Below, in pieces: positions 22,293 through 50,226 of a stretch of 64,000 nucleotides of DNA; position 1 is the stretch's first letter; each line of letters begins with the position of its first letter. Under the pieces are notes generated by a model. The model saw only the letters and a list, made by a program, of their open reading frames with translations, was not told the origin of the DNA and did not search any database. This DNA is from a virus. The DNA lies in the IMG/VR virus record IMGVR_UViG_3300008114_000013. One strand, given 5' to 3'. Position numbers and translations under genes: made by a program.

Positions 22293-22673
22293 TTAATCAA
22301 CTTTAATTGAAATTGATTTTGATTTCCTTTCGTCTTTCTTATCAATTGTTAAAGTAAGTAACCCATTAGTGAATTTTGCCTCCGTTTTAGTTCCATCATA
22401 ATCTTTGCCTACACTGAATGTGACATCGATGTCCTGTACTAACGGAGAACTACCTTCTTGCTTTTTTGCTTTAATTGTTACCTTATCTTCGGTAACTTCT
22501 AATTTAATGTTTTTAACATCATGCCCTAATACATTAAATGTTAATTGTTGTTTACCATCCTCCAACTGCGTTACATCGTAATCTGCCGCAAATGTATTGT
22601 AATTAGTTGTGGTAGTGTACCAGTTTGGAGAATTAAATAAATTTACTAATTTTTTTAAATCTGAATTGTACAT
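22293..22673 (-). CDS. Small heat-shock protein (Hsp20/alpha-crystallin)
   Basis: TEAKFTNGLLTLTI motif; start moved to MYNSDL because the longer ORF overlaps the promoter. Confidence 0.85.
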   Translation of the reverse strand: MYNSDLKKLVNLFNSPNWYTTTTNYNTFAADYDVTQLEDGKQQLTFNVLGHDVKNIKLEVTEDKVTIKAKKQEGSSPLVQDIDVTFSVGKDYDGTKTEAKFTNGLLTLTIDKKDERKSKSISIKVD

Positions 22674-22716
22674 AGTTAATTTGTTTAAGTTTTTGAAATA
22701 ATTTAAATTCATATTA

Positions 22717-22788
22717 TCCAATACTATACCAACCAAATTAATATGACAAAGTGTCAGTATTCTTTAATAAATATCTGACACAATGTCT
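22717..22788 (-). promoter_or_regulatory. Sigma54-like promoter with two TGACA-N3-TGTC(A/T) upstream palindromes
   Basis: TGGTATAGTATTGGA (GG-N10-GA) at 22717-22731; palindromes at 22744-22756 and 22776-22788. Confidence 0.5.
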
Positions 22789-32561: not shown

Positions 32562-32822
32562 ATGAGAAAGACAGAATTCTTTAAAAACTATGGTGGAGCA
32601 TTAGTTGCTATAACCGCCGATGATGCAGAGTATGGTGATTTCCTACTACTTCATCCAGAAGAAATAGAAATGGCAAAAGTATATGAAAGTTTAGGTTGTA
32701 CTATCGTATCCGTACATGAAATGGAAGATGGTGATGATGATATTGATATGAATCAGCCCTGTGATTATGGTAACCAACCATTTAAAATTGGATACTTTGC
32801 ATTAGATAACCCAAACTTTTAA
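32562..32822 (+). CDS. Hypothetical acidic early protein
   Basis: 86-aa ORF in the + strand island. Confidence 0.7.
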   Translation: MRKTEFFKNYGGALVAITADDAEYGDFLLLHPEEIEMAKVYESLGCTIVSVHEMEDGDDDIDMNQPCDYGNQPFKIGYFALDNPNF

Positions 32823-33827: not shown

Positions 33828-34463
33828 TTATAACAATTTCACTTTGTTATTTACAACATACTCATAATACTCCCTATCTCCCCTCATTAAGGTAAGCATC
33901 CTCTCCCATTGAATTGGATATTCACTCTTTACCATTTCTACAATCCACTCTTTCGATTTCCAATCTTCAATGTGATGGAAACTATATTCATCTTTAATAT
34001 ACTCTATATCCCATCCCAATTTAGCTAGGAACTCCGTAGTTTCCGTAATTTGTAGAATCTTAAACCGTTTGATATTATGGTTCTTATATAGAAAGTGTAT
34101 TTTTTTAAAAAATGAACCACTCCAATGAGTAGTACCAGTAGGTGAAGCAAATTCATCCACTATTGAACTCACCTTTTCCGTATCCGAGTAGCAACTAACC
34201 AATTCCGTATGCAATGCACTTTGTAACCATTCATACGGGTCTCTCACCACTAACCATTCTACACCCTTCCACAAATCGTAATCCTCAATTCGGGATGGTG
34301 TTCCTTCTACCGTTTGTGTAATATCCGATTGTTGGGGTAAACACGATACAATCCGTTCCATGTACCCGACTTGCCGTTCGGCCGATTTCACACATTTAGA
34401 AAAATAACGAGTTCCACATTTTGCGGGTACGGCGATATTCCTATTGAATATCTCTATTACCAT
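33828..34463 (-). CDS. Sulfotransferase-2-family-like protein
   Basis: PAKCGTR and VRDPYEWLQS motifs. Confidence 0.55.
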   Translation of the reverse strand: MVIEIFNRNIAVPAKCGTRYFSKCVKSAERQVGYMERIVSCLPQQSDITQTVEGTPSRIEDYDLWKGVEWLVVRDPYEWLQSALHTELVSCYSDTEKVSSIVDEFASPTGTTHWSGSFFKKIHFLYKNHNIKRFKILQITETTEFLAKLGWDIEYIKDEYSFHHIEDWKSKEWIVEMVKSEYPIQWERMLTLMRGDREYYEYVVNNKVKLL

Positions 34464-34582
34464 CTCTTATCCCTTCGAAGTAGCCAGATGGGAAAGTATA
34501 TCAACCCAGTCACGATAACTGCTCCTACCCCCAAAAGAATGAGTGTAGAGACCAATGCGAATTTAACCCAGCTTACCATCAT
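34457..34582 (-). CDS. Small single-TM protein (41 aa)
   Basis: Read manually: MMVSWVKFALVSTLILLGVGAVIVTGLIYFPIWLLRRDKRW; overlaps both neighbours by a few bases. Confidence 0.5.
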   Translation of the reverse strand: MMVSWVKFALVSTLILLGVGAVIVTGLIYFPIWLLRRDKRW

Positions 34583-35535
34583 CTCCTGCTCATACTTTCA
34601 GTTATTCTTCGATTCCTTTCTACATCTCCTATCACCCCATTTAAATCCGCTACCACTTCCGTTACGGCTAGAGATGCACTCATAGGTGTAATGGTTTCCG
34701 TTACGGTAGTTGAATTCGGTGTTTCCACCACACTAACCGTTTCGGTTTCTTTTCTCACCGATTGTCGTGGTGCAGATTCTTGAGTATCCTCTGTAGATGC
34801 TACCCGATTTTGTATCTGAATCTTACCCTTATTGATTGGTGGTACTCCGTTATAGAATGTATCCTTAATACTATTGAAATCCTTTCTTAACTCTGTTAAC
34901 CTCTCACCTAATGACCCCAAAAATTCTTTGAGTTTGGCAGTATCCAATTTGCCATCCTCCTGCGCAGTGGTTACGTTTAGTGCCTGGATAGAGTATAGAG
35001 TATCATCCCCCAAATTCATATCCCATAGAGAATAAGAATCTCCTGGCCGTTGAGCACCTTCCTTTAAAGTGTAGTTCAATTGGTTAATCAAACCTTTGGG
35101 AATTCCCATCTCCATCTCCGTTTCGTAAATGTATTCCACAGATTCAACCCCTGCGTTTAAGATTTTTTGGTCTTGCTCATCTCCACTCTTCACTAACTTC
35201 GATACATCTATCTTTATGATTGGAATGGAACTCCCTATGGGTTTGTTTTTAATCGTGCCGTTTTGTTGGTAATCCCAATGAGGGTTAGAGGATAATCCGA
35301 TTCCTACATTGGTTGCTGGTGAAATCAAGTACTTATCATCAATCTGAATCACAATCCCATCAACTTCTAATACTGTATAAATCGATGAGTTGGGGATTGC
35401 CGTTCCTTCGGTTATAGTTATGGGAACAATCTCTCCGTTTACATTACCGTTGGGTGAATCCGAAACAGAGGAAACCAACCAACCATCGTTAGTACGAATA
35501 TATCTGTCTGGGTTTTGTACTGGTCTTACTTCCAT
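34579..35535 (-). CDS. Hypothetical protein
   Basis: 318-aa ORF. Confidence 0.65.
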   Translation of the reverse strand: MEVRPVQNPDRYIRTNDGWLVSSVSDSPNGNVNGEIVPITITEGTAIPNSSIYTVLEVDGIVIQIDDKYLISPATNVGIGLSSNPHWDYQQNGTIKNKPIGSSIPIIKIDVSKLVKSGDEQDQKILNAGVESVEYIYETEMEMGIPKGLINQLNYTLKEGAQRPGDSYSLWDMNLGDDTLYSIQALNVTTAQEDGKLDTAKLKEFLGSLGERLTELRKDFNSIKDTFYNGVPPINKGKIQIQNRVASTEDTQESAPRQSVRKETETVSVVETPNSTTVTETITPMSASLAVTEVVADLNGVIGDVERNRRITESMSRR

Positions 35536-35848
35536 TTTCTTTCTTTGATTTTTTTAAGGAGTTGATGGTTTTCATCGCCTCTCTATATATAGTTAGTTCG
35601 GATATTTTCCTTTTACCCTTACTTCGTTTGATACGGTATAGTTCCCTTTGGAGGGTTTTGTATTCCCCGATTTCAATACATTCGGTTATGATTTTGTTAA
35701 TCATCAAGTCGGAACTCATTCTTTTGTAGGTGGATTTATCAACCTCGCTTTTCGAATCCGTTAGAGGGGAAAACCTTACTGCGTTTGCAATACCTACGGA
35801 TACTCCGAAATCGTTTGCCGTCTTTAAGTATACTTCCGTTTTTAACAT
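35489..35848 (-). CDS. Basic hypothetical protein
   Basis: 119-aa ORF. Confidence 0.55.
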   Translation of the reverse strand: MLKTEVYLKTANDFGVSVGIANAVRFSPLTDSKSEVDKSTYKRMSSDLMINKIITECIEIGEYKTLQRELYRIKRSKGKRKISELTIYREAMKTINSLKKSKKENGSKTSTKPRQIYSY

Positions 35849-35861
35849 GCTTCGTTTTTGA

Positions 35862-36020
35862 TTAGTTAATATCTACCTTTCTTTTCGTTAAGTAAAATGC
35901 TCGTGCTTGTCTTGCGAAGTGTGCGTTACCACATCTCGTTAGGTAATCCTCATCTGATTCTCCATCGATTCTAGCACAGGCTCTCTCAAACACTTTAATC
36001 AATAATTCCTTTAGTTTCAT
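35862..36020 (-). CDS. Small late protein (52 aa)
   Basis: Read manually: MKLKELLIKVFERACARIDGESDEDYLTRC...; TATATATT motif just upstream. Confidence 0.55.
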   Translation of the reverse strand: MKLKELLIKVFERACARIDGESDEDYLTRCGNAHFARQARAFYLTKRKVDIN

Positions 36021-36312
36021 ACTAATATATATCGAATTAGGTAAAAAGAAATCGGTTCATATAGGGGTTAATGTGTCAACATTAGTGTCAAAAAAGGGTT
36101 CCCACCACAAAAAAAGTCCCCCCGGTATTTAAACGAGTCCGACTGGGTCTTGGAGGGTTCCGCTTTTCCTAGCTACATGAAACTCGTCAAACCCCTATTC
36201 GGATAACCGTATATTCGGATAGGCAAATATGCGAGTGTGTAGACGTGAAAAAACCTGCAGAGTTTCCTCCACAGGTTGTACGAATCTACTAGCTTTGAAT
36301 GAGTTTTGTATG

Positions 36313-36504
36313 TTAAGCGAATGCCTCTTTGAGTATCCTCATTGCGGTTCGAATTTCGTTTAACCTCTCACTAGCAGCGTACTTTGGTTTACCATCTCTC
36401 ATAACTCTAATCCTATTCACTAGGACAGATTCAGCTGACTCTAATACTACGAGGGCTTCATGCCTACGAGTTTCCACTTCTTGTACTTCTATAAAATTGC
36501 TCAT
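36313..36504 (-). CDS. Hypothetical protein
   Basis: ORF track 36313-36537; the internal ATG (MSNFIEV) is the more plausible start. Confidence 0.55.
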   Translation of the reverse strand: MSNFIEVQEVETRRHEALVVLESAESVLVNRIRVMRDGKPKYAASERLNEIRTAMRILKEAFA

Positions 36505-36542
36505 AATTATGTATATTATATTTTGTATGTTTTTCAAAAATA

Positions 36543-36572
36543 AAAAGGTGGGGGCCAGAAACCTCCACCTTT
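36543..36572 (-). terminator. Terminator-like hairpin
   Basis: AAAGGTGG(G/A)GG...CC(T/C)CCACCTTT with A/T runs. Confidence 0.6.
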
Positions 36573-36640
36573 ATAGGCCTAGCTCATAGAGTAATAAGAA
36601 TAGAGTATAAATCGAGAATAACCGTTTATATGAGCTAACC

Positions 36641-36681
36641 TTGAGCAGAGTGGGGAGTCGAACCCCAACTTACCTCTCTCC
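36641..36681 (-). ncRNA. tRNA-like minihelix (T-arm plus acceptor-like stem)
   Basis: GGAGAGAGGTAAGT-TGGGG-TTCGACT-CCCCA-CTCTGCTCAA; canonical T-loop, no D or anticodon arm. Confidence 0.45.
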
Positions 36682-36683
36682 AC

Positions 36684-36857
36684 TTACTGTACTGCAGGTT
36701 CTACCACAGGGGCTTCAGCAGCGGTAGTATCTACTGTAGTCACTCCGGTAGTATCAGCTGCTACTGCAGTTGAGTCCGTAGTACCTTCGGTAGTACCTTT
36801 ACCTCCACATGCTACCATAAGAGATGCGAGGGCCAAAATTGCGATTACTTTTTTCAT
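36684..36857 (-). CDS. Small lipoprotein (57 aa) with Bacteroidota O-glycosylation sequons
   Basis: Read manually: MKKVIAILALASLMVA-CGGKGTTEGTTDSTAVAADTTGVTTVDTTAAEAPVVEPAVQ; lipobox Cys17; DST, DTT, DTT. Confidence 0.85.
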   Translation of the reverse strand: MKKVIAILALASLMVACGGKGTTEGTTDSTAVAADTTGVTTVDTTAAEAPVVEPAVQ

Positions 36858-36923
36858 CTTTCTTTTGTTTGTGTAGTGAGTCCGTTGATATAGGTGGTAC
36901 TCTTTGCCTATCTTATTGTGGTA

Positions 36924-36954
36924 TAAATATACGAAATAATTTCCATTATTCCAA
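36924..36954 (-). promoter_or_regulatory. Bacteroidota-type promoter of the lipoprotein gene
   Basis: TTG-N20-TATATTTA. Confidence 0.7.
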
Positions 36955-36967
36955 GTACTTTCAAAAA

Positions 36968-37354
36968 TTAATGTCCAAGGGTACGATTTACGTTATCTAG
37001 GTATATACCATCTATCTTGGGTTGGCTCTGGTTACTTAACCAACTACTAGCCTGTTGTTCCAGCTCTATGGCTGCCTCCATATCCTTATGTAGGGCGGCT
37101 ACTCCCTTAACTGCCTGGTATCCGTTAACTCGTAGTGCCTTCTTCTCTAGCTTCTCTCTTTCGAATGTGGAGATAAATCGGTATACACTATCGATAGTAC
37201 TAAACACCTTATTCAGGCCATGTCGCTTGTTAGATAGTCCGTATAGTATAACATCCTCCACACCATCTTTGGTACGAAGTGTTTGTCTGACTGGGTTGAG
37301 TTTGTATCCTTTAGGTAGTGTACAATCCATGTCGTTTGGTAGTAGATAATCCAT
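36968..37354 (-). CDS. Hypothetical early protein
   Basis: 128-aa ORF. Confidence 0.65.
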   Translation of the reverse strand: MDYLLPNDMDCTLPKGYKLNPVRQTLRTKDGVEDVILYGLSNKRHGLNKVFSTIDSVYRFISTFEREKLEKKALRVNGYQAVKGVAALHKDMEAAIELEQQASSWLSNQSQPKIDGIYLDNVNRTLGH

Positions 37355-37357
37355 TGT

Positions 37358-37549
37358 TTAGTTATTTAAGAATTTTAAGAATGATTTCCAGTCAACACAC
37401 ATTAGGGAGAATAACCCTATTCCGAAGAAGAATGCGGATACACCTTCATTCGAGTCAACATACATCCATTTCGATAGTTCACCAGAGTTGATGAAGTACC
37501 CTATGGTAAGGGAAGCGAGGGAAAGGAGGAGGATTTGATAATTTTTCAT
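37358..37549 (-). CDS. Small two-TM membrane protein
   Basis: Start moved to MKNYQILL, which follows the C-rich leader. Confidence 0.6.
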   Translation of the reverse strand: MKNYQILLLSLASLTIGYFINSGELSKWMYVDSNEGVSAFFFGIGLFSLMCVDWKSFLKFLNN

Positions 37550-37560
37550 AGTATAGGGGA

Positions 37561-37886
37561 TTAGGGAGCGATTAACCATTCGTTGTAGATGTACTCATAG
37601 TCATGACCAGTGATTTCAGAGAACTTTTCAAATACCCTCTCTCTTATCACACTATCATGCACTCCGATGTACTCATATACACACCCACCTCTAATCTCGC
37701 ACCGAAGTGTCCGAACTCCATCACATCGTAGTAACCGAGGTCCACCTTATACAGATGGGTTGGGTACTTACCACTACCATAGTACACGCGGTGTTGTATG
37801 TTCTCCCGCTTCACATTCGGAAGCTTCATTAGAGAAGTGATACGGCTGGAAGAGGCGGAGACGGTGAAGAAATCGAAGTCGTTCAT
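37561..37886 (-). pseudogene. Early gene with an apparent frameshift near 37675
   Basis: The ORF ends at 37647, but an alternative frame continues EYIGVHDSVIRERVFEKFSEITGHDYEYIYNEWLIAP to a stop at 37561. Confidence 0.4.
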
Positions 37887-37922
37887 AGAATAGGGGGGTT
37901 AGGTTGAACTCTTATTACATAG

Positions 37923-37953
37923 TAAAGGTAAGTAATTCTCGCGAATAATCCAA
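37923..37953 (-). promoter_or_regulatory. Bacteroidota-type early promoter
   Basis: TTG-N20-TACCTTTA plus GTAATAAGAG; near-copy at 38709-38739. Confidence 0.75.
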
Positions 37954-37970
37954 GCACTTTTGAAATTATT

Positions 37971-38210
37971 TTAGAAATTATATGCGTTCCATACATACTC
38001 TACTGGCCGCTCATATCTATGGCCGGCAGTGTGGTTTTGTTGCCAGGCCCAGCTTCCCTCATATGGTGATGGGATTACTTCCATAGTACACATACCATTG
38101 GAGTTGATACTAACGAGCTTTGCCCGTAGGGTTGGTGAGAAGTTCTCCGATACCGGAAAGCCAATGCGAGGTTTAAGTTCTTCTGCGTAGTTTATTTTGA
38201 AGGGGTTCAT
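37971..38210 (-). CDS. Hypothetical early protein
   Basis: 79-aa ORF. Confidence 0.6.
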   Translation of the reverse strand: MNPFKINYAEELKPRIGFPVSENFSPTLRAKLVSINSNGMCTMEVIPSPYEGSWAWQQNHTAGHRYERPVEYVWNAYNF

Positions 38211-38211
38211 A

Positions 38212-38361
38212 TTAGTTGTGATTTAGGGTCCATACTCCATTTGCCATCATTGCGGTGAATGCTTTTCTCGGCATTACTCTTTCTACTCCATTGGGGAATA
38301 GGACTAGGACGATGGATTGTCCGTAGTGTAACCATGTTCTGGTGATGTGTGGTTCTGTCAT
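38212..38361 (-). CDS. Small hypothetical protein (49 aa)
   Basis: Read manually: MTEPHITRTWLHYGQSIVLVLFPNGVERVMPRKAF...; fills the operon gap. Confidence 0.55.
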   Translation of the reverse strand: MTEPHITRTWLHYGQSIVLVLFPNGVERVMPRKAFTAMMANGVWTLNHN

Positions 38362-38365
38362 ATCT

Positions 38366-38671
38366 TTAGATGATTGATTTTAGAATTGAATTAGAGAAGT
38401 TGTACTGAAGTTTCAGTTGGTTACCAGCCTCTTTAGGAGATAACTCATTAAGGATTCTATCGATAACATTCCCTTCAGATTTGTAAATCTTTAAGAAGTT
38501 CAAAATCGCTTTATGTTGTGGTCTGGTACGGAAGGAGAAAGTAAATCCATACTTACTAATGGTTGGTGCCCCACTTCGTACTGCCAAACCTTTTTTAGAA
38601 GTTGGTTTGAAGATTCCGGCTTCTTCTACATTCACGGATGAGTAACGGGGGTTGTTTCTGTAACTGGTCAT
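38366..38671 (-). CDS. Hypothetical early protein
   Basis: Start moved to MTSYRNNPRY, downstream of the promoter and C-rich leader. Confidence 0.6.
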   Translation of the reverse strand: MTSYRNNPRYSSVNVEEAGIFKPTSKKGLAVRSGAPTISKYGFTFSFRTRPQHKAILNFLKIYKSEGNVIDRILNELSPKEAGNQLKLQYNFSNSILKSII

Positions 38672-38708
38672 AATCAGGGGGGTTAGTAGTTCATCATTCA
38701 TTACATAG

Positions 38709-38739
38709 TAAAGGTAAGTAATTGTGAGCAAAAATCCAA
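38709..38739 (-). promoter_or_regulatory. Bacteroidota-type early promoter
   Basis: TTG-N20-TACCTTTA. Confidence 0.75.
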
Positions 38740-38797
38740 GCAATTATGAAATTATTTTTAGTGACAATGTGTCACACTTTGAGTTGTCCGATTGGAT

Positions 38798-38855
38798 GGG
38801 ACGACTGAACTGTAGACATTCTGTCGATGGTTACTATACTCCGCCCGCCCGTCCC
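38798..38855 (-). ncRNA. Putative promoter-driven small structured RNA
   Basis: Promoter at 38857-38887 points into GGGACGG...TCGTCCC (paired ends, internal GACA-GAA-TGTC hairpin); no ORF. Confidence 0.45.
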
Positions 38856-38950
38856 TTAAAGGTACAAAGAATATTTCAGAAAGTCAAGCATTTTGATGGA
38901 TTTATTTTTCATCTATTTTTGTCCAATTCTTTCTACGATTTGTCCGTCCT

Positions 38951-38978
38951 ATTTAACATAATCTGGATTATATAACAA
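38951..38978. other. dif-like XerC/XerD recombination site
   Basis: ATTTAACATAA-TCTGGA-TTATATAACAA; the left arm is the exact reverse complement of the XerD arm TTATGTTAAAT; 6-bp spacer. Confidence 0.75.
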
Positions 38979-39022
38979 ACTTTTTGTACTTTTCTTTCAC
39001 AAGCTTGTACTTTAATGTAATG

Positions 39023-39119
39023 TTAGGCTCGTCTAAACTTTCCGATTTAGGTTCGTCTAAATTACTGACATTGTGTCAGACGAATTTACAATTGTAAACA
39101 AATTTTAGGCCCATCTAAA
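39023..39119. repeat. Three TTAGG-N4-TCTAA imperfect palindromes (DtxR/MntR-box-like) and a TTTACAATTGTAAA palindrome (BlaI/CopY-box-like)
   Basis: 39023-39036, 39046-39061, 39104-39119; 39085-39098. Confidence 0.55.
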
Positions 39120-39345
39120 CTTTTTGGTTTTATCTCGTAGACTACCAAAGTTAATCAGGGCAATGGAAATGGGGTTTTCGTTTTTATGACAATGTGTCAG
39201 ACTACCTCTCTATAAAAAAATTTTGCTACGGACGATGTGAATGGGTGGGATATTCCCTTTCTTTATGACAGTGTATTACTGATGTGTGTGTTTATTGTAG
39301 TGTATCGGTATGTGAATATCTATTTTGACAGATGTAAGTGTTTTA

Positions 39346-39389
39346 CCACACCTTACCACTCTGTCCCACTTCACCCCACTCTCTCCCAC
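39346..39389 (-). repeat. Five GTGG direct repeats at exact 10-bp period (MraZ-box-like)
   Basis: GTGGGAGAGA GTGGGGTGAA GTGGGACAGA GTGGTAAGGT GTGG. Confidence 0.75.
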
Positions 39390-39418
39390 CTTATTTGCTA
39401 CACTACTATCTCCCTCTC

Positions 39419-39709
39419 TTAATCGATTAATGGAATGGAATTGTAGATACCTATTACCCCTACTACCAACCAGAATGCATTGAGTAGAATGTAGGGTTTG
39501 TTTCCTCTTTGATAGGCACAATAGGTTAGTAATACGGCATCTATTGAGTTCCATATCCACATCCATAAGAACGGTGTGTCTTTACCCATTATGGATAGTA
39601 ATCCAAAGGCAAGGATTCTCATTAGGACTCCTATACCTTCTAGTCTTTCTATTGTTCTTTCGGATTTAATAGATTTTATTTTCATTTGTTTCCGATGGGG
39701 TTTAATCAA
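39419..39709 (-). CDS. Small three-TM membrane protein
   Basis: Hydrophobic helices; ILLNAFWLVVGVIGIY. Confidence 0.65.
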   Translation of the reverse strand: MIKPHRKQMKIKSIKSERTIERLEGIGVLMRILAFGLLSIMGKDTPFLWMWIWNSIDAVLLTYCAYQRGNKPYILLNAFWLVVGVIGIYNSIPLID

Positions 39710-40112
39710 AAAATGATGTTATTATACTCTTTATATTATGGATGTCCTTTACCATCCATACGGGTCGAATTATGGGTTTCCATCCCGCATCTCTTTTTAC
39801 CCATATATCTATCACTTTATCTCCCATCATTCCTATATAGGGTATGGGTTGTAGTGCTTGTGTTTGTGATACGGGTGTTACTACTCCGTTTATATCTCTT
39901 TCTCCTGCATAGGTAGAATGAATGGGTTTATTGATTTGTAGATAACCTTCCCACTTTCCTACAGGGTATGAGTACACACTCCATAAGTAGTTATCTACTC
40001 CTACCTTTAGATTCCTTCCTTCGTATATTATATTCCATAACTTTGTTCCTTTTACTATTGAACTCTCTCCTAGCTTTTGGGGGTTCTGTATATGGATATT
40101 TGCTTTATTCAA
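39702..40112 (-). CDS. Hypothetical protein
   Basis: 136-aa ORF overlapping its neighbours. Confidence 0.6.
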   Translation of the reverse strand: MNKANIHIQNPQKLGESSIVKGTKLWNIIYEGRNLKVGVDNYLWSVYSYPVGKWEGYLQINKPIHSTYAGERDINGVVTPVSQTQALQPIPYIGMMGDKVIDIWVKRDAGWKPIIRPVWMVKDIHNIKSIITSFFD

Positions 40113-40794
40113 CTGAATTATTTTTTGTATGATTGTCAGACTTTTTGGAAACTGCTCTGCCTTCCATCTTCTCCCAATCTCTATCCCATCTCACTGCATC
40201 GTTTGTCCTTTGTGCTGCCGATAGAACATTGTCGATAGTACCCAACTCCTTCGTCAGGTAGAGAAATGCTGCCAGGTCCTTCGGGAAGCAGTGTCCACCG
40301 AATCCAAAATCTCCATCATGTCCCGGTACTCCCCAATGGGAATCTCCTAATCTCTCATCCATAGTAGCATACTCAATTACCTTATCGTAATCTGCTCCTA
40401 CCTCATTACACAATTGATATATCTCATTAGCAAAGGATACCTTTACAGATAGGAATGTGTTGGTTACATACTTCACCATTTCTGCGTATGTCGAATTCGT
40501 CTTAATGATATGTGCCTTTGGGAATACCTTTGAGAATATCTGTTTAATACCATTCGTCTTTCCAATCTCGTCGATTTGTTTAATAACTCCCTCAACAATG
40601 TCCGTATTGCATGACCCATCCTCATTCATTGGGGTTGGTAAGCAAACGAATACATAATCGGATTCAGCTACGGATTCAAATGTGGAATTCGCTTTACTCG
40701 AATCCAAATCGAATGTACTCACTTCATAATACTTTTTGAACTTCTGGTAAACTGCGTTACCTACGAACCCTTGTCCTACTATTCCTAATTTCAT
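40105..40794 (-). pseudogene. UDP-glucose/GDP-mannose dehydrogenase family protein with an in-frame internal deletion
   Basis: GQGFVG, VCLPTP, AEMVKY..N and GFGGHCFPKD are present; the KST and NPEFL segment is missing. Confidence 0.65.
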
Positions 40795-42068
40795 CTAAAA
40801 AACTGATTTAATTTATCTACTACTTCTGCTTTTACTTCTACTTTTTTATCACTTTCTTCCTTATATGGATTACTAATTTCATAGTTTATTCTATTTTCAG
40901 CAATCTCCATATATTCTTTTTCTCTTTCAATACCAACGAAGTCAAAACCACCTCTAATTGCAGCTTTTCCAGTAGAACCACTACCCATAAAGGGGTCAAG
41001 AGTTGTTCCACCTTTCGGTGTCACTAAACGGATTAGATATAACATCAAATCGGTTGGTTTGACGGTTGGGTGTATGTTTCCTTCGTTTCTGTCACCTTTA
41101 GAAGTTTTGGGACAATAGAAGAAACGAGATACTCCTTCATATTGCTCATCTAATATCTTACCCGCTTCCTCATCAAAGATTATGTTTGCAGGAAATCTGC
41201 CAAGAGTTTGAGAGTGTTCTACTTTTTGTTTCATTTTCTCACCAAACTCTTTCATCTTCTCTTCATCGTGCATCCACGGTCTATCAAATCCTTCAATATC
41301 CAATACTGAACCATTTGTTGCACCACCACCAAGATTATCATTAGTAGGTATTCTACTATCATCTATATTTATTCCACCAGTGCCCCACTCTAATACATTA
41401 TTGCCTACCGTTTTTTCACTCAATGGTTTTCTTGCCATTACAATAGGTTCATGTGCGGGTTTAAGAGCAGTTCCCCAACCTCCCCATTCGTTTGTTATTT
41501 CATATACAGGTATATCACCAGATATTTGTTTTCCACCCATAGATTTACCAGGAACATATTCTTTTGAGTATGAATAACCACTTGTACCAGTTTCTACTTT
41601 AATTCCTTGTTTTGTACCAATCTGTTTTAAGTTTTTTATACCACCAACTTTAATCTTTTCAATATCTTTACCAATATCTCTTGATTTAGGAAATCCGGAA
41701 CCATATATCCACATCATTTGGTCTCTAATCTCAAACCCAGCATTTTCCACTCCACTTGCTAATCGGTGATACATTCTACTTCCACCAAAGGCTAACATAT
41801 ACCCACCTGGTTTTAGAACTCTCATACATTCTATAGACCATTCGGTCACCCATTTCTCAAACTCAATGTTATCGGCAAGGGTGGTCATTTTCATACCAGC
41901 TCCTAAACCTTTAACTACTTGTGATTGGGTTTCTCTAGTTGCCTTTACTTTATCCCAATCTTTACCCATAAAGGAAAGTCCGTAAGGTGGGTCTGTTACG
42001 ATTGAGTCAATAGAATTATCGTCTAACTCTTTTAGTTTATCTAAACAATCTCCTAATAATAATTTCAT
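40791..42068 (-). CDS. DNA amino-methyltransferase (N6-adenine/N4-cytosine, beta class)
   Basis: TDPPY, HPTVKP and DPFMGSGSTG motifs. Confidence 0.92.
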   Translation of the reverse strand: MKLLLGDCLDKLKELDDNSIDSIVTDPPYGLSFMGKDWDKVKATRETQSQVVKGLGAGMKMTTLADNIEFEKWVTEWSIECMRVLKPGGYMLAFGGSRMYHRLASGVENAGFEIRDQMMWIYGSGFPKSRDIGKDIEKIKVGGIKNLKQIGTKQGIKVETGTSGYSYSKEYVPGKSMGGKQISGDIPVYEITNEWGGWGTALKPAHEPIVMARKPLSEKTVGNNVLEWGTGGINIDDSRIPTNDNLGGGATNGSVLDIEGFDRPWMHDEEKMKEFGEKMKQKVEHSQTLGRFPANIIFDEEAGKILDEQYEGVSRFFYCPKTSKGDRNEGNIHPTVKPTDLMLYLIRLVTPKGGTTLDPFMGSGSTGKAAIRGGFDFVGIEREKEYMEIAENRINYEISNPYKEESDKKVEVKAEVVDKLNQFFR

Positions 42069-49878: not shown

Positions 49879-50226
49879 TTAAAGATATGATGGTCCGTAT
49901 GTACTATAACGAGCAGTTCCATCCATAATGTTACCTCTCGCATGCTTTGCTGGTGCTTTCCAACTGGCTGGTTTTAACAAGTCACCTTTCTTAATTGGTG
50001 CACCTTTTAAATCACCATCAACTCTACTGATGAATCCCCAACAGGTTGAACCTGTCCACAATCGAAGGAATTTGTTACCAACTTCCAACACCAAGTGTGT
50101 AGGAGTTAAACTACTTAAATTTTTTGCGTAATACGCATCGATGTCAGCGTTTACTTTTTTAATAAATTCAGAAACGGCTGGATTGTTCTGAAGATAATCT
50201 AGGGATTTTTGTGTCATTACTCTCAT
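49879..50226 (-). CDS. Conserved early phage protein
   Basis: GDLLKPASWKAPAKHARGNI motif; promoter at 50265-50295. Confidence 0.7.
   Translation of the reverse strand: MRVMTQKSLDYLQNNPAVSEFIKKVNADIDAYYAKNLSSLTPTHLVLEVGNKFLRLWTGSTCWGFISRVDGDLKGAPIKKGDLLKPASWKAPAKHARGNIMDGTARYSTYGPSYL

Follow-up and report, generated by a model that had tools for sequence, protein, structure and literature searches.

IMG/VR virus record IMGVR_UViG_3300008114_000013 contains, within the 64,000-nucleotide stretch analyzed here (the window), a gene-free gap of ~750 bases (positions 38672 to 39418) that lies, on open reading frame (ORF) maps, between the start of a 101-amino-acid gene and the stop of an 87-amino-acid membrane-protein gene, and the question that it raises is what such a region does for a phage. 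A first-pass annotation had described the gap as an array of diverse motifs for binding host proteins and had proposed that it acts as a decoy, or sponge, that titrates host regulators without encoding any protein. Every motif was found at the coordinate claimed for it, and the idea of host-protein binding held for two of the motif classes, a dif site and an array of GTGG boxes, both of which are linked to cell division; for the other motif classes it did not hold. On balance, the gap is probably a cis-acting control region that recruits host XerC/XerD and FtsK and probably also MraZ, and it forms a conserved noncoding region in a lineage of large (~190 to 300 kb), one-strand-coded Bacteroidota phages. 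Judged by its motifs, it looks like a control region recruiting host cell division proteins, which fits better than a pure protein sponge.

A host-type dif site in the gap

The element at positions 38951 to 38978 on the minus strand has the 11-6-11 layout of a dif site and consists of a XerC-type arm (TTGTTATATAA), the spacer TCCAGA, and a XerD arm (TTATGTTAAAT). A scan of the window with the 22-base arm pattern, allowing up to three mismatches, returned this 28-mer as the sole match, with 0.02 matches expected by chance. The XerD arm is identical to that of Escherichia coli dif as printed in PMC3025954, and both arms are identical to those of the Bacteroidota chromosomal dif. Among the matches listed, the arm pattern TTAACATAAT-N4-ATTATATAACAA was found in at least 120 Bacteroidota genomes, mostly Cytophagales, with no more than one match per contig, and in five of five complete chromosomes it is single copy even when two mismatches are allowed. 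The distance between dif and dnaA in five genomes (13 to 44% of the circle) was uninformative, and GC skew was therefore used instead to place the terminus; in G003, a 5.03-Mb Cyclobacteriaceae chromosome, dif lies exactly at the sign change of the skew, from +0.096 over the 20 kb on its left side to -0.083 on its right side. When the gap was compared by BLAST with 151 Cytophagales genomes, dif was the only recurrent match. Judged by its sequence, the window dif is a genuine host-type XerC/XerD site, which bears out the dif site that the first-pass annotation had placed at 38951.

The surroundings of the host sites were informative as well. In the host sample of ~120 dif sites (loci L282 to L401, among the matches listed), the word AGGGGAG points toward dif 99 times and away from it once within 4 kb on either side of 120 sites, and TAGGGGA (69 to 3) and AGGAGGG (64 to 4) show the same polarity. 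This is the behavior expected of words that orient FtsK, and it marks them as candidates for a Bacteroidota counterpart of the FtsK-orienting polar sequences (KOPS).

Four TTGT(C/A)C words (positions 38919, 38940, 38984, and 39005, plus strand, within 38918 to 39013) bracket the window dif as two pairs, each 21 bp apart; the first pair consists of the TTTGTCC copies (38918 and 38939) and the second of the TGTACTTT copies (38985 and 39006). They were considered as accessory words of the host dif and rejected, as TTGTAC and TTGTCC are not enriched beside host dif sites.

Spacers and polar words at phage dif sites

Exact dif arms are present in 24 IMG/VR viral contigs, including two, L150 and L086, that were found independently through a different motif and through a membrane protein, respectively. 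Complete relatives of 287 and 188 kb contain exactly one dif copy each, and the gaps that hold the site in relatives are long and gene poor (0.9 to 1.2 kb in L150, L262, and L281), amid small genes on one strand. The same arms occur in a second, unrelated lineage of tailed phages that have terminase, portal, and major head/capsid genes. In the dif-bearing gap of a 229-kb relative there are also three or four direct repeats of ACAAATGTG(A/G)ATAAC (L261:3608-3900), which are absent from the window.

The spacers of the phage sites differ from those of the hosts. The central four spacer bases are ATAA or ATTA at 91 of 119 host sites and at 0 of 25 phage sites, and the CTGG of the window is unique among 144 sites, matching none of the 119 host and 24 other viral sites. 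Such a spacer would permit a phage dif to recombine with another copy of itself and with no other site, in a comparison with sampled hosts that may not include the phage's own. Host-type polar words accompany the phage sites as well: within 2 kb on either side, they point at the phage dif 15 times and away from it twice in nonredundant jumbo contigs, and in the second lineage one to three of them lie within 60 nucleotides (nt) of dif and point at it in 13 of 13 contigs. In that lineage, which corresponds to the L259 to L280 group (for example, L279:865-890, L263, and L260), polar words directly abut dif. The avoidance of host spacers together with the polar words argues that the phage dif is more than a passive copy, and a site that works in cis fits this combination better than a passive decoy. 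A literature search found no paper on dif in jumbo phages; the Tyrovirus paper deals only with phage-encoded Xer-like recombinases.

A GTGG array that resembles the host mraZ operator

The second host-like element is an array of five GTGG boxes with an exact 10-bp period on the minus strand (positions 39346 to 39389; GTGGGAGAGA GTGGGGTGAA GTGGGACAGA GTGGTAAGGT GTGG) that resembles an MraZ operator. It yields three overlapping matches to a triple-box pattern, against 0.07 expected, and none of 100 shuffled sequences reached three. The regions upstream of host mraZ in five Bacteroidota genomes contain two to three GTGG boxes one helical turn apart (e.g., GTGGGAGAAAGTGGTGG), and the exact triple pattern has two matches in five complete genomes, both of them at mraZ promoters, and none in the control. 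Between one stretch of the array, GTGGGAGAGAGTGGGG, and the host sequence GTGGGAGAAAGTGGGG there is a mismatch at 1 of 16 positions. The five MraZ-like boxes of the first-pass annotation thus match an architecture that was found, in the five genomes, only at host mraZ promoters. In three Cytophagales genomes (L424, L425, and L426), the region upstream of mraZ also contains a second pair of MraZ-type boxes, CCCCACTTTCTCCCAC, which is inverted and lies ~250 nt farther upstream than the main array.

Arrays of four GTGG boxes are present in the relatives L446/L447, L155, and L261/L268, and in L446/L447 the array has kept its position and strand though the neighboring gene is only 64% identical. 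In the window the array sits between the gene for the 87-amino-acid membrane protein and the early promoters described below, not at an mraZ or dcw promoter, and searches of the window and of six related records turned up no MraZ gene. With an array of the host mraZ type and no MraZ gene of the phage found, host MraZ is the leading candidate for its ligand. A literature search found no paper on MraZ boxes in phages.

Conserved ends and a variable middle

Comparison of the window with its relatives indicates how these elements are arranged. L447 and the window are collinear at both ends of the gap and differ in the middle, which in L447 has no dif. One shared end consists of the GTGG array followed by ATGTCAAAATA and ATCCCACC..TTCACAT, and the other consists of a promoter that runs into GGGnGG..GGGCGG and then the next early promoter. 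L150 has the same ends as the window and a dif-containing middle in which the elements are reordered, and in L261, L268, and L266 the G-tract promoter is found on the opposite side of dif, toward which it is directed. Beside the GTGG array, a ~170-nt conserved module includes GTGAATGGGTGGGAT (positions 39237 to 39251, plus strand), of which 15 of 15 bases are found in L150 and 12 of 15 in L447. Shared ends with differing middles imply that the gap is a conserved backbone holding a variable cassette of protein-binding modules. The relatives keep the modules and shuffle their order and orientation, an outcome that the first-pass annotation had predicted when it named this comparison as a check. 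In one further relative, L450, the expected start of the gap coincides with a stretch of N in the scaffold, which is therefore uninformative on the gap.

Two early promoters in the gap, both on the minus strand, lead into an operon of small genes. The first, P1 (positions 38709 to 38741; -33 element CTTGGA, -7 element TACCTTTA), serves the 101-amino-acid gene through the leader GTAATGAATG...AACCCCCC and is conserved in L150, L447, and L450. A nearly identical promoter and leader precede the gene starting at 37886, and promoters of this class also occur at 50226, 51631, 52729, 55294, 57691, and 63002. The second, P2 (positions 38839 to 38889; -33 element CTTGAC, -7 element TACCTTTA), is an orphan: it leads directly into the G-tract GGGACGGGCGGGCGGAG, and no ORF follows. 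The module of promoter and G-tract occurs once each in the window, L155, L261, L268, L266, L150, and L447, with a -7 box of TATATTGT in L150 and TATCTTTA in L447, and it lies 89 to 156 bp from dif wherever dif is present. The G-tract of P2 is the only one of its kind on its strand of the window. A scan for sigma-70 promoters and terminators gave counts at background level.

The recurrence of this orphan promoter is what gives a replication origin its standing as a possible, though not a probable, explanation of the gap, and one that overlaps the control-region reading. The G-rich transcript of the orphan promoter would form a stable R-loop that primes DNA synthesis, as at T4 oriF/oriG or in ColE1, the GTGG array and the palindromes would bind initiator or control proteins, and dif would mark where rounds of replication end, so that the gap might also be the terminus of a circle replicating one way. 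A promoter with GGGnGGGCGG and no ORF, found once each in six contigs besides the window, close to dif where there is one, and as a lone G-tract on its strand of a genome with ~30% GC, is what such an origin would offer; the gap is also long, repeat rich, and conserved in position, and essentially all genes of the complete relative G008 are on one strand, so that origin and terminus could coincide. Against these points, no replication initiator gene adjoins the gap, no long AT-rich unwinding element was identified in it, and the promoter does not always face the same way with respect to dif. Neither the window nor G008 shows an inflection of GC skew at the gap, though none would be expected under uniform one-way coding.

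TGACA palindromes are associated with the early promoters. Exact TGACA-N3-TGTCA palindromes occur three times in a 440-bp part of the gap: TGACAATGTGTCA at 38762 to 38774, ~20 nt upstream of the -33 element of P1; TGACATTGTGTCA at 39066 to 39078; and TGACAATGTGTCA again at 39187 to 39199, with a degenerate copy, TGACAGTGTATTA, at 39266. The sole other exact copy in the 64 kb is at 22744, where two palindromes of this type lie 32 bp apart (22744 to 22788) just upstream of the ORF at 22293 to 22736, which the first-pass annotation called hsp20. In the window, L150, L155, L261, L268, and L266, TGACAWTGTGTCA is found ~20 to 25 nt upstream of a promoter with a CTTGGA or CTTGAC -33 element and the -7 element TACCTTTA, an arrangement that occurs twice in L150. 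The palindrome had been listed among the host regulator motifs; TGACAWTGTGTCA is not enriched in hosts, with 4 matches and 4 in the control in 41 Cytophagales genomes, and the element is most simply taken, from its placement, as the operator of a phage regulator. Host matches of 19 to 38 nt to palindrome 3 and to positions 39250 to 39283 were discarded, as the two inspected (in G134 and G070) lie inside coding sequence and are due to chance.

Borders and genome setting of the gap

The source is a large freshwater Bacteroidota phage with an AT-rich genome (~30% GC) whose genes, in the window, are nearly all on the minus strand. Its baseplate protein is distant kin of the counterparts in Flavobacterium phage immuto and Microcystis phage Mel-JY01, and its close relatives come from freshwater metagenomes; a phage collection searched with DNA gave no match to the window. 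The gap sequence is identical in L445, an independent metagenome contig from the Joint Genome Institute (JGI), and in JGI metagenomes the exact dif with the spacer of the window was found in the same phage only.

Both genes that flank the gap are real, and its limits are for that reason set at 38672 and 39418. The first gene downstream (38366 to 38671, minus strand) has 26 database relatives, many of which are called at 101 amino acids, and no Pfam match; a search of IMG/VR with a 125-amino-acid reading of the same gene found no close relative. The last gene upstream, that of the 87-amino-acid membrane protein (39419 to 39682, minus strand), has 16 viral relatives at 69 to 78% identity. The first-pass annotation had stated that no credible gene follows the motifs, which is contradicted by the 101-amino-acid gene and the early promoter that it has inside the gap. 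Its description of the gap itself as gene free is upheld, since ORFs internal to the gap have no Pfam match and, when the gap is aligned with its homologue in L150, insertions and deletions whose lengths are not multiples of three break the frame. Nor is there a sign of a structured RNA in the gap, with no Rfam match, fold z-scores of -1.2 to +1.9, and no covariation; a six-sequence alignment of the promoter/G-tract module gave 0 consensus pairs and no conserved RNA fold.

The wider neighborhood of the gap, from 34000 to 42000, has ~40% GC, compared with ~30% elsewhere in the window, and is coded more loosely, with several gaps of 100 to 300 bp; the dif-bearing region of G008 is likewise somewhat higher in GC. 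Another of the gaps, at 36068 to 36143, holds a ~76-nt noncoding element that is 82% identical to L150:842-917 and lies upstream of a minus-strand gene in both the window phage and L150. In L448 and L449, a homologue (73 to 75% identity, compared over window positions 32571 to 32814) of the plus-strand gene at 32562 to 32822 abuts the early promoter at 38759, a junction that makes the edge of the gap a rearrangement point. A UDP-glucose-dehydrogenase-like gene at 40105 to 40794 is short, lacking ~56 amino acids (168 nt) that are present in its closest viral relatives, with the break at 40545/40546; the relatives of this gene do not share the gap sequence.

Remaining motifs

The other motif classes did not support recognition by the host regulators that had been suggested for them. 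Three exact TTAGGYYCRTCTAAA repeats (TTAGG-N4-TCTAA) at 39023, 39047, and 39105 (plus strand, within 39023 to 39119) occur nowhere else in the window and are absent from all relatives examined; they are confined to the window phage, and a host regulator motif (DtxR/MntR-like), as first suggested, is not supported. They were also considered as LexA/SOS boxes and rejected, as the published Bacteroidetes SOS box is CTAA-N5-TTAG or GGA-N5-TCC (PMC8565304) and the half-site order and spacing of the phage repeats differ from it.

The palindrome TTTACAATTGTAAA (TTTACA-N2-TGTAAA; positions 39085 to 39098) is also found in L267 and in L150, which has one exact copy and a near copy, TTTACTTATGTAAA. It is about three-fold enriched in hosts (59 sites compared with 18 in the control, in 31 genomes), where the sites cluster in threes beside an XRE-type helix-turn-helix (HTH) gene. 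The sites of L437 adjoin an HTH_3 (XRE) gene and a MORN-repeat gene, those of L439 adjoin an integrase gene, and those of L438 have a small neighboring gene without a Pfam match. The palindrome thus resembles operators beside an XRE-type gene and not the BlaI/MecI/CopY operator that had been proposed, as no BlaI/CopY gene stands beside the clustered sites. In the Cytophagales loci L437:2523-2625 and L438:2425-2567, three TTTACAWWTGTAAA sites within ~100 to 140 bp have a 3-hydroxyacyl-CoA dehydrogenase gene on one side and, on the other, an operon that combines a small gene with a MORN-repeat gene, the layout of a lambda-like triple operator.

A further element, GTTTTATCTCGTAG-N6-AAAGTTAATCAGGG (positions 39127 to 39160, plus strand), is shared with L150 and partly with L262. 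Pattern scans of IMG/VR, run with the TGACA palindrome, with the TTAGG repeat, and with GTGAATGGGTGGGAT, yielded only single matches that, apart from those in L150 and L155, were mostly due to chance.

Decoy, genome end, and integration

The decoy that was first proposed is an unlikely explanation. It holds that the dif and the five-box array of the multiplying phage would soak up XerC/XerD and MraZ, with the other motifs taking up further regulators, and that the resolution of the host chromosome and the control of its division operon would be disturbed without any phage protein. Two host-type, division-linked sites within 440 bp, five boxes that could outcompete a host operator with two to three, a spacer unlike any host spacer, which would suit binding without recombination, and modules shuffled among relatives are all in keeping with it. 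However, only two of the six motif classes are host-like, the gap holds early promoters that look functional and would be targets in cis, set in a collinear backbone, some relatives do without dif, and the polar words suggest that the phage dif is meant for the arrival of a translocase and not for mere occupancy. In E. coli, loss of Xer affects a minority of cells and loss of mraZ has a mild phenotype, which makes the gain to the phage from a decoy uncertain.

Less probable still is that the gap holds or adjoins the physical termini of the genome, a terminal repeat, or a packaging region. The start of the 297-kb contig behind L155 falls within the homologous gap, the L274 contig stops 8 nt from dif, and the dif of the second lineage is situated ~3 kb upstream from the terminase gene, with many contigs ending within 0.2 to 3 kb of dif; set against this, dif is far from the contig ends in G007 and G008, and there is no terminase gene near the gap in the window.

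The attP sites of integrative mobile elements exploiting Xer (IMEX), such as those of CTXphi, VGJphi, TLCphi, and the proviruses BMV1-7 (PMC3091885), are likewise host dif-like sites on integrase-less viruses, with the difference that the gap belongs to very large tailed phages. Although exact host arms, complete relatives in which no integrase was found, and the precedent in the same phylum (PMC3091885) would suit an attP through which XerC/XerD insert an integrase-less temperate phage at the host dif, as modeled on CTXphi, VGJphi, and the Bacteroidetes microvirus proviruses, this is the least probable of the explanations, since tblastx found no phage-like coding sequence, and thus no integrated copy, within 4 kb of ~120 host dif sites in the sampled genomes, the pattern is single copy (up to two mismatches) in five complete chromosomes, the spacer TCCAGA matches no host spacer seen, and no repressor or lysogeny module was recognized in these 190- to 300-kb genomes.

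Comparison with known systems

A close likeness is to the chromosomal system of dif, XerC/XerD, and FtsK with its KOPS, with which the phage site, a candidate for recombination, shares the 11-6-11 layout, the XerD arm of E. coli dif, the arms of Bacteroidota, and polar G-rich words that point at the site; it differs in having no skew switch and a nonhost spacer. The plasmid sites cer (ColE1) and psi (pSC101) are likewise Xer cores on extrachromosomal replicons amid conserved noncoding, possibly accessory DNA. These plasmid sites are independent of FtsK and use PepA with ArgR or ArcA on ~180 bp at the XerC side, whereas no accessory sites of that type were identified in the phage gap and its polar words point to FtsK.

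The array has the direct GTGG repeats one helical turn apart of the MraZ operator at the mraZ (dcw) promoter, but as a putative operator it has five boxes where hosts have two to three, and it is not upstream of an mraZ or dcw gene. As to the gap as a whole, datA of the E. coli chromosome and incA of plasmid P1 are noncoding arrays that soak up a DNA-binding protein and serve as a model for a decoy; they bind the initiator of their own replicon, whereas the candidate ligands of the phage gap are host proteins of two kinds. T4 oriF/oriG and ColE1 RNA II have an ORF-less promoter whose transcript can persist as an R-loop primer, and the promoter of the gap module may be similar, except that the T4 origins are without the G-tract and the gap is without an identified unwinding element. 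The nearest printed analogue of a noncoding docking region for a host protein is the untranslated iss region in the left terminal repeat of phage T5, which contains eight DnaA boxes (Davison, bioRxiv 10.1101/866236). Like the gap, iss is a long, repeat-rich, conserved noncoding phage region proposed to bind a host DNA-binding protein; it differs in that the protein is DnaA, the location is a terminal repeat, and the proposed role is injection arrest.

Proposed function and implications

Read as a control region, the gap has a fixed backbone, with the GTGG array just after the upstream operon, the ~170-nt conserved module, and the early promoter that runs into a G-tract, behind which the next operon of small genes has its own promoter, and a variable middle that in the window phage holds a complete dif, three putative TGACA-N3-TGTCA operators, and the three private 15-mers. 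Host XerC/XerD, activated by FtsK, would recombine two copies of the phage dif, so that circular products of replication, or an episomal form, are resolved or unlinked, and the odd spacer would guard against recombination between the phage site and the host chromosome. Host MraZ may bind the GTGG array and gate transcription or initiation events there, and a dimeric regulator encoded by the phage may bind the TGACA palindromes beside the early promoters.

Several points weigh against a control region of this kind. A complete relative of 288 kb (G006) and the L447 lineage have no dif, so the site is dispensable for the phage lineage. No tyrosine recombinase (integrase), ParB, or FtsK was found in the complete relatives searched, which leaves a stable episome without visible support, and for a phage that packages concatemers the need for dimer resolution is not obvious. 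The polar words might be Chi-like and not FtsK orienting, and the G-tract promoter points away from dif in the window and L150, unlike in L261, L268, and L266. The array could bind an unrecognized phage protein instead of MraZ, the sequence read being the 64-kb window and not the whole genome.

A broader and more speculative proposal is that large integrase-less Bacteroidota phages couple themselves to host division by noncoding DNA alone, through a dif amid FtsK-orienting words and an MraZ operator with extra boxes, either as a division-resolved episome with MraZ-responsive early genes or by a trap for XerCD/FtsK and MraZ. If true, this would be a protein-free exploitation of host division, of which no description was found for tailed phages. 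Three by-products concern the hosts themselves: a dif consensus for Bacteroidota, the candidate FtsK-orienting word AGGGGAG, and the mraZ operator pattern of the phylum. Xer sites on viruses are textbook knowledge for small integrating filamentous phages and microviruses; here, perfect host dif arms occur in very large, lytic-looking tailed phages in which no integrase was found. If the sites work, these phages would use host segregation and division factors by way of cis-acting DNA, which would have a bearing on the resolution, maintenance, or timing of giant phage genomes.

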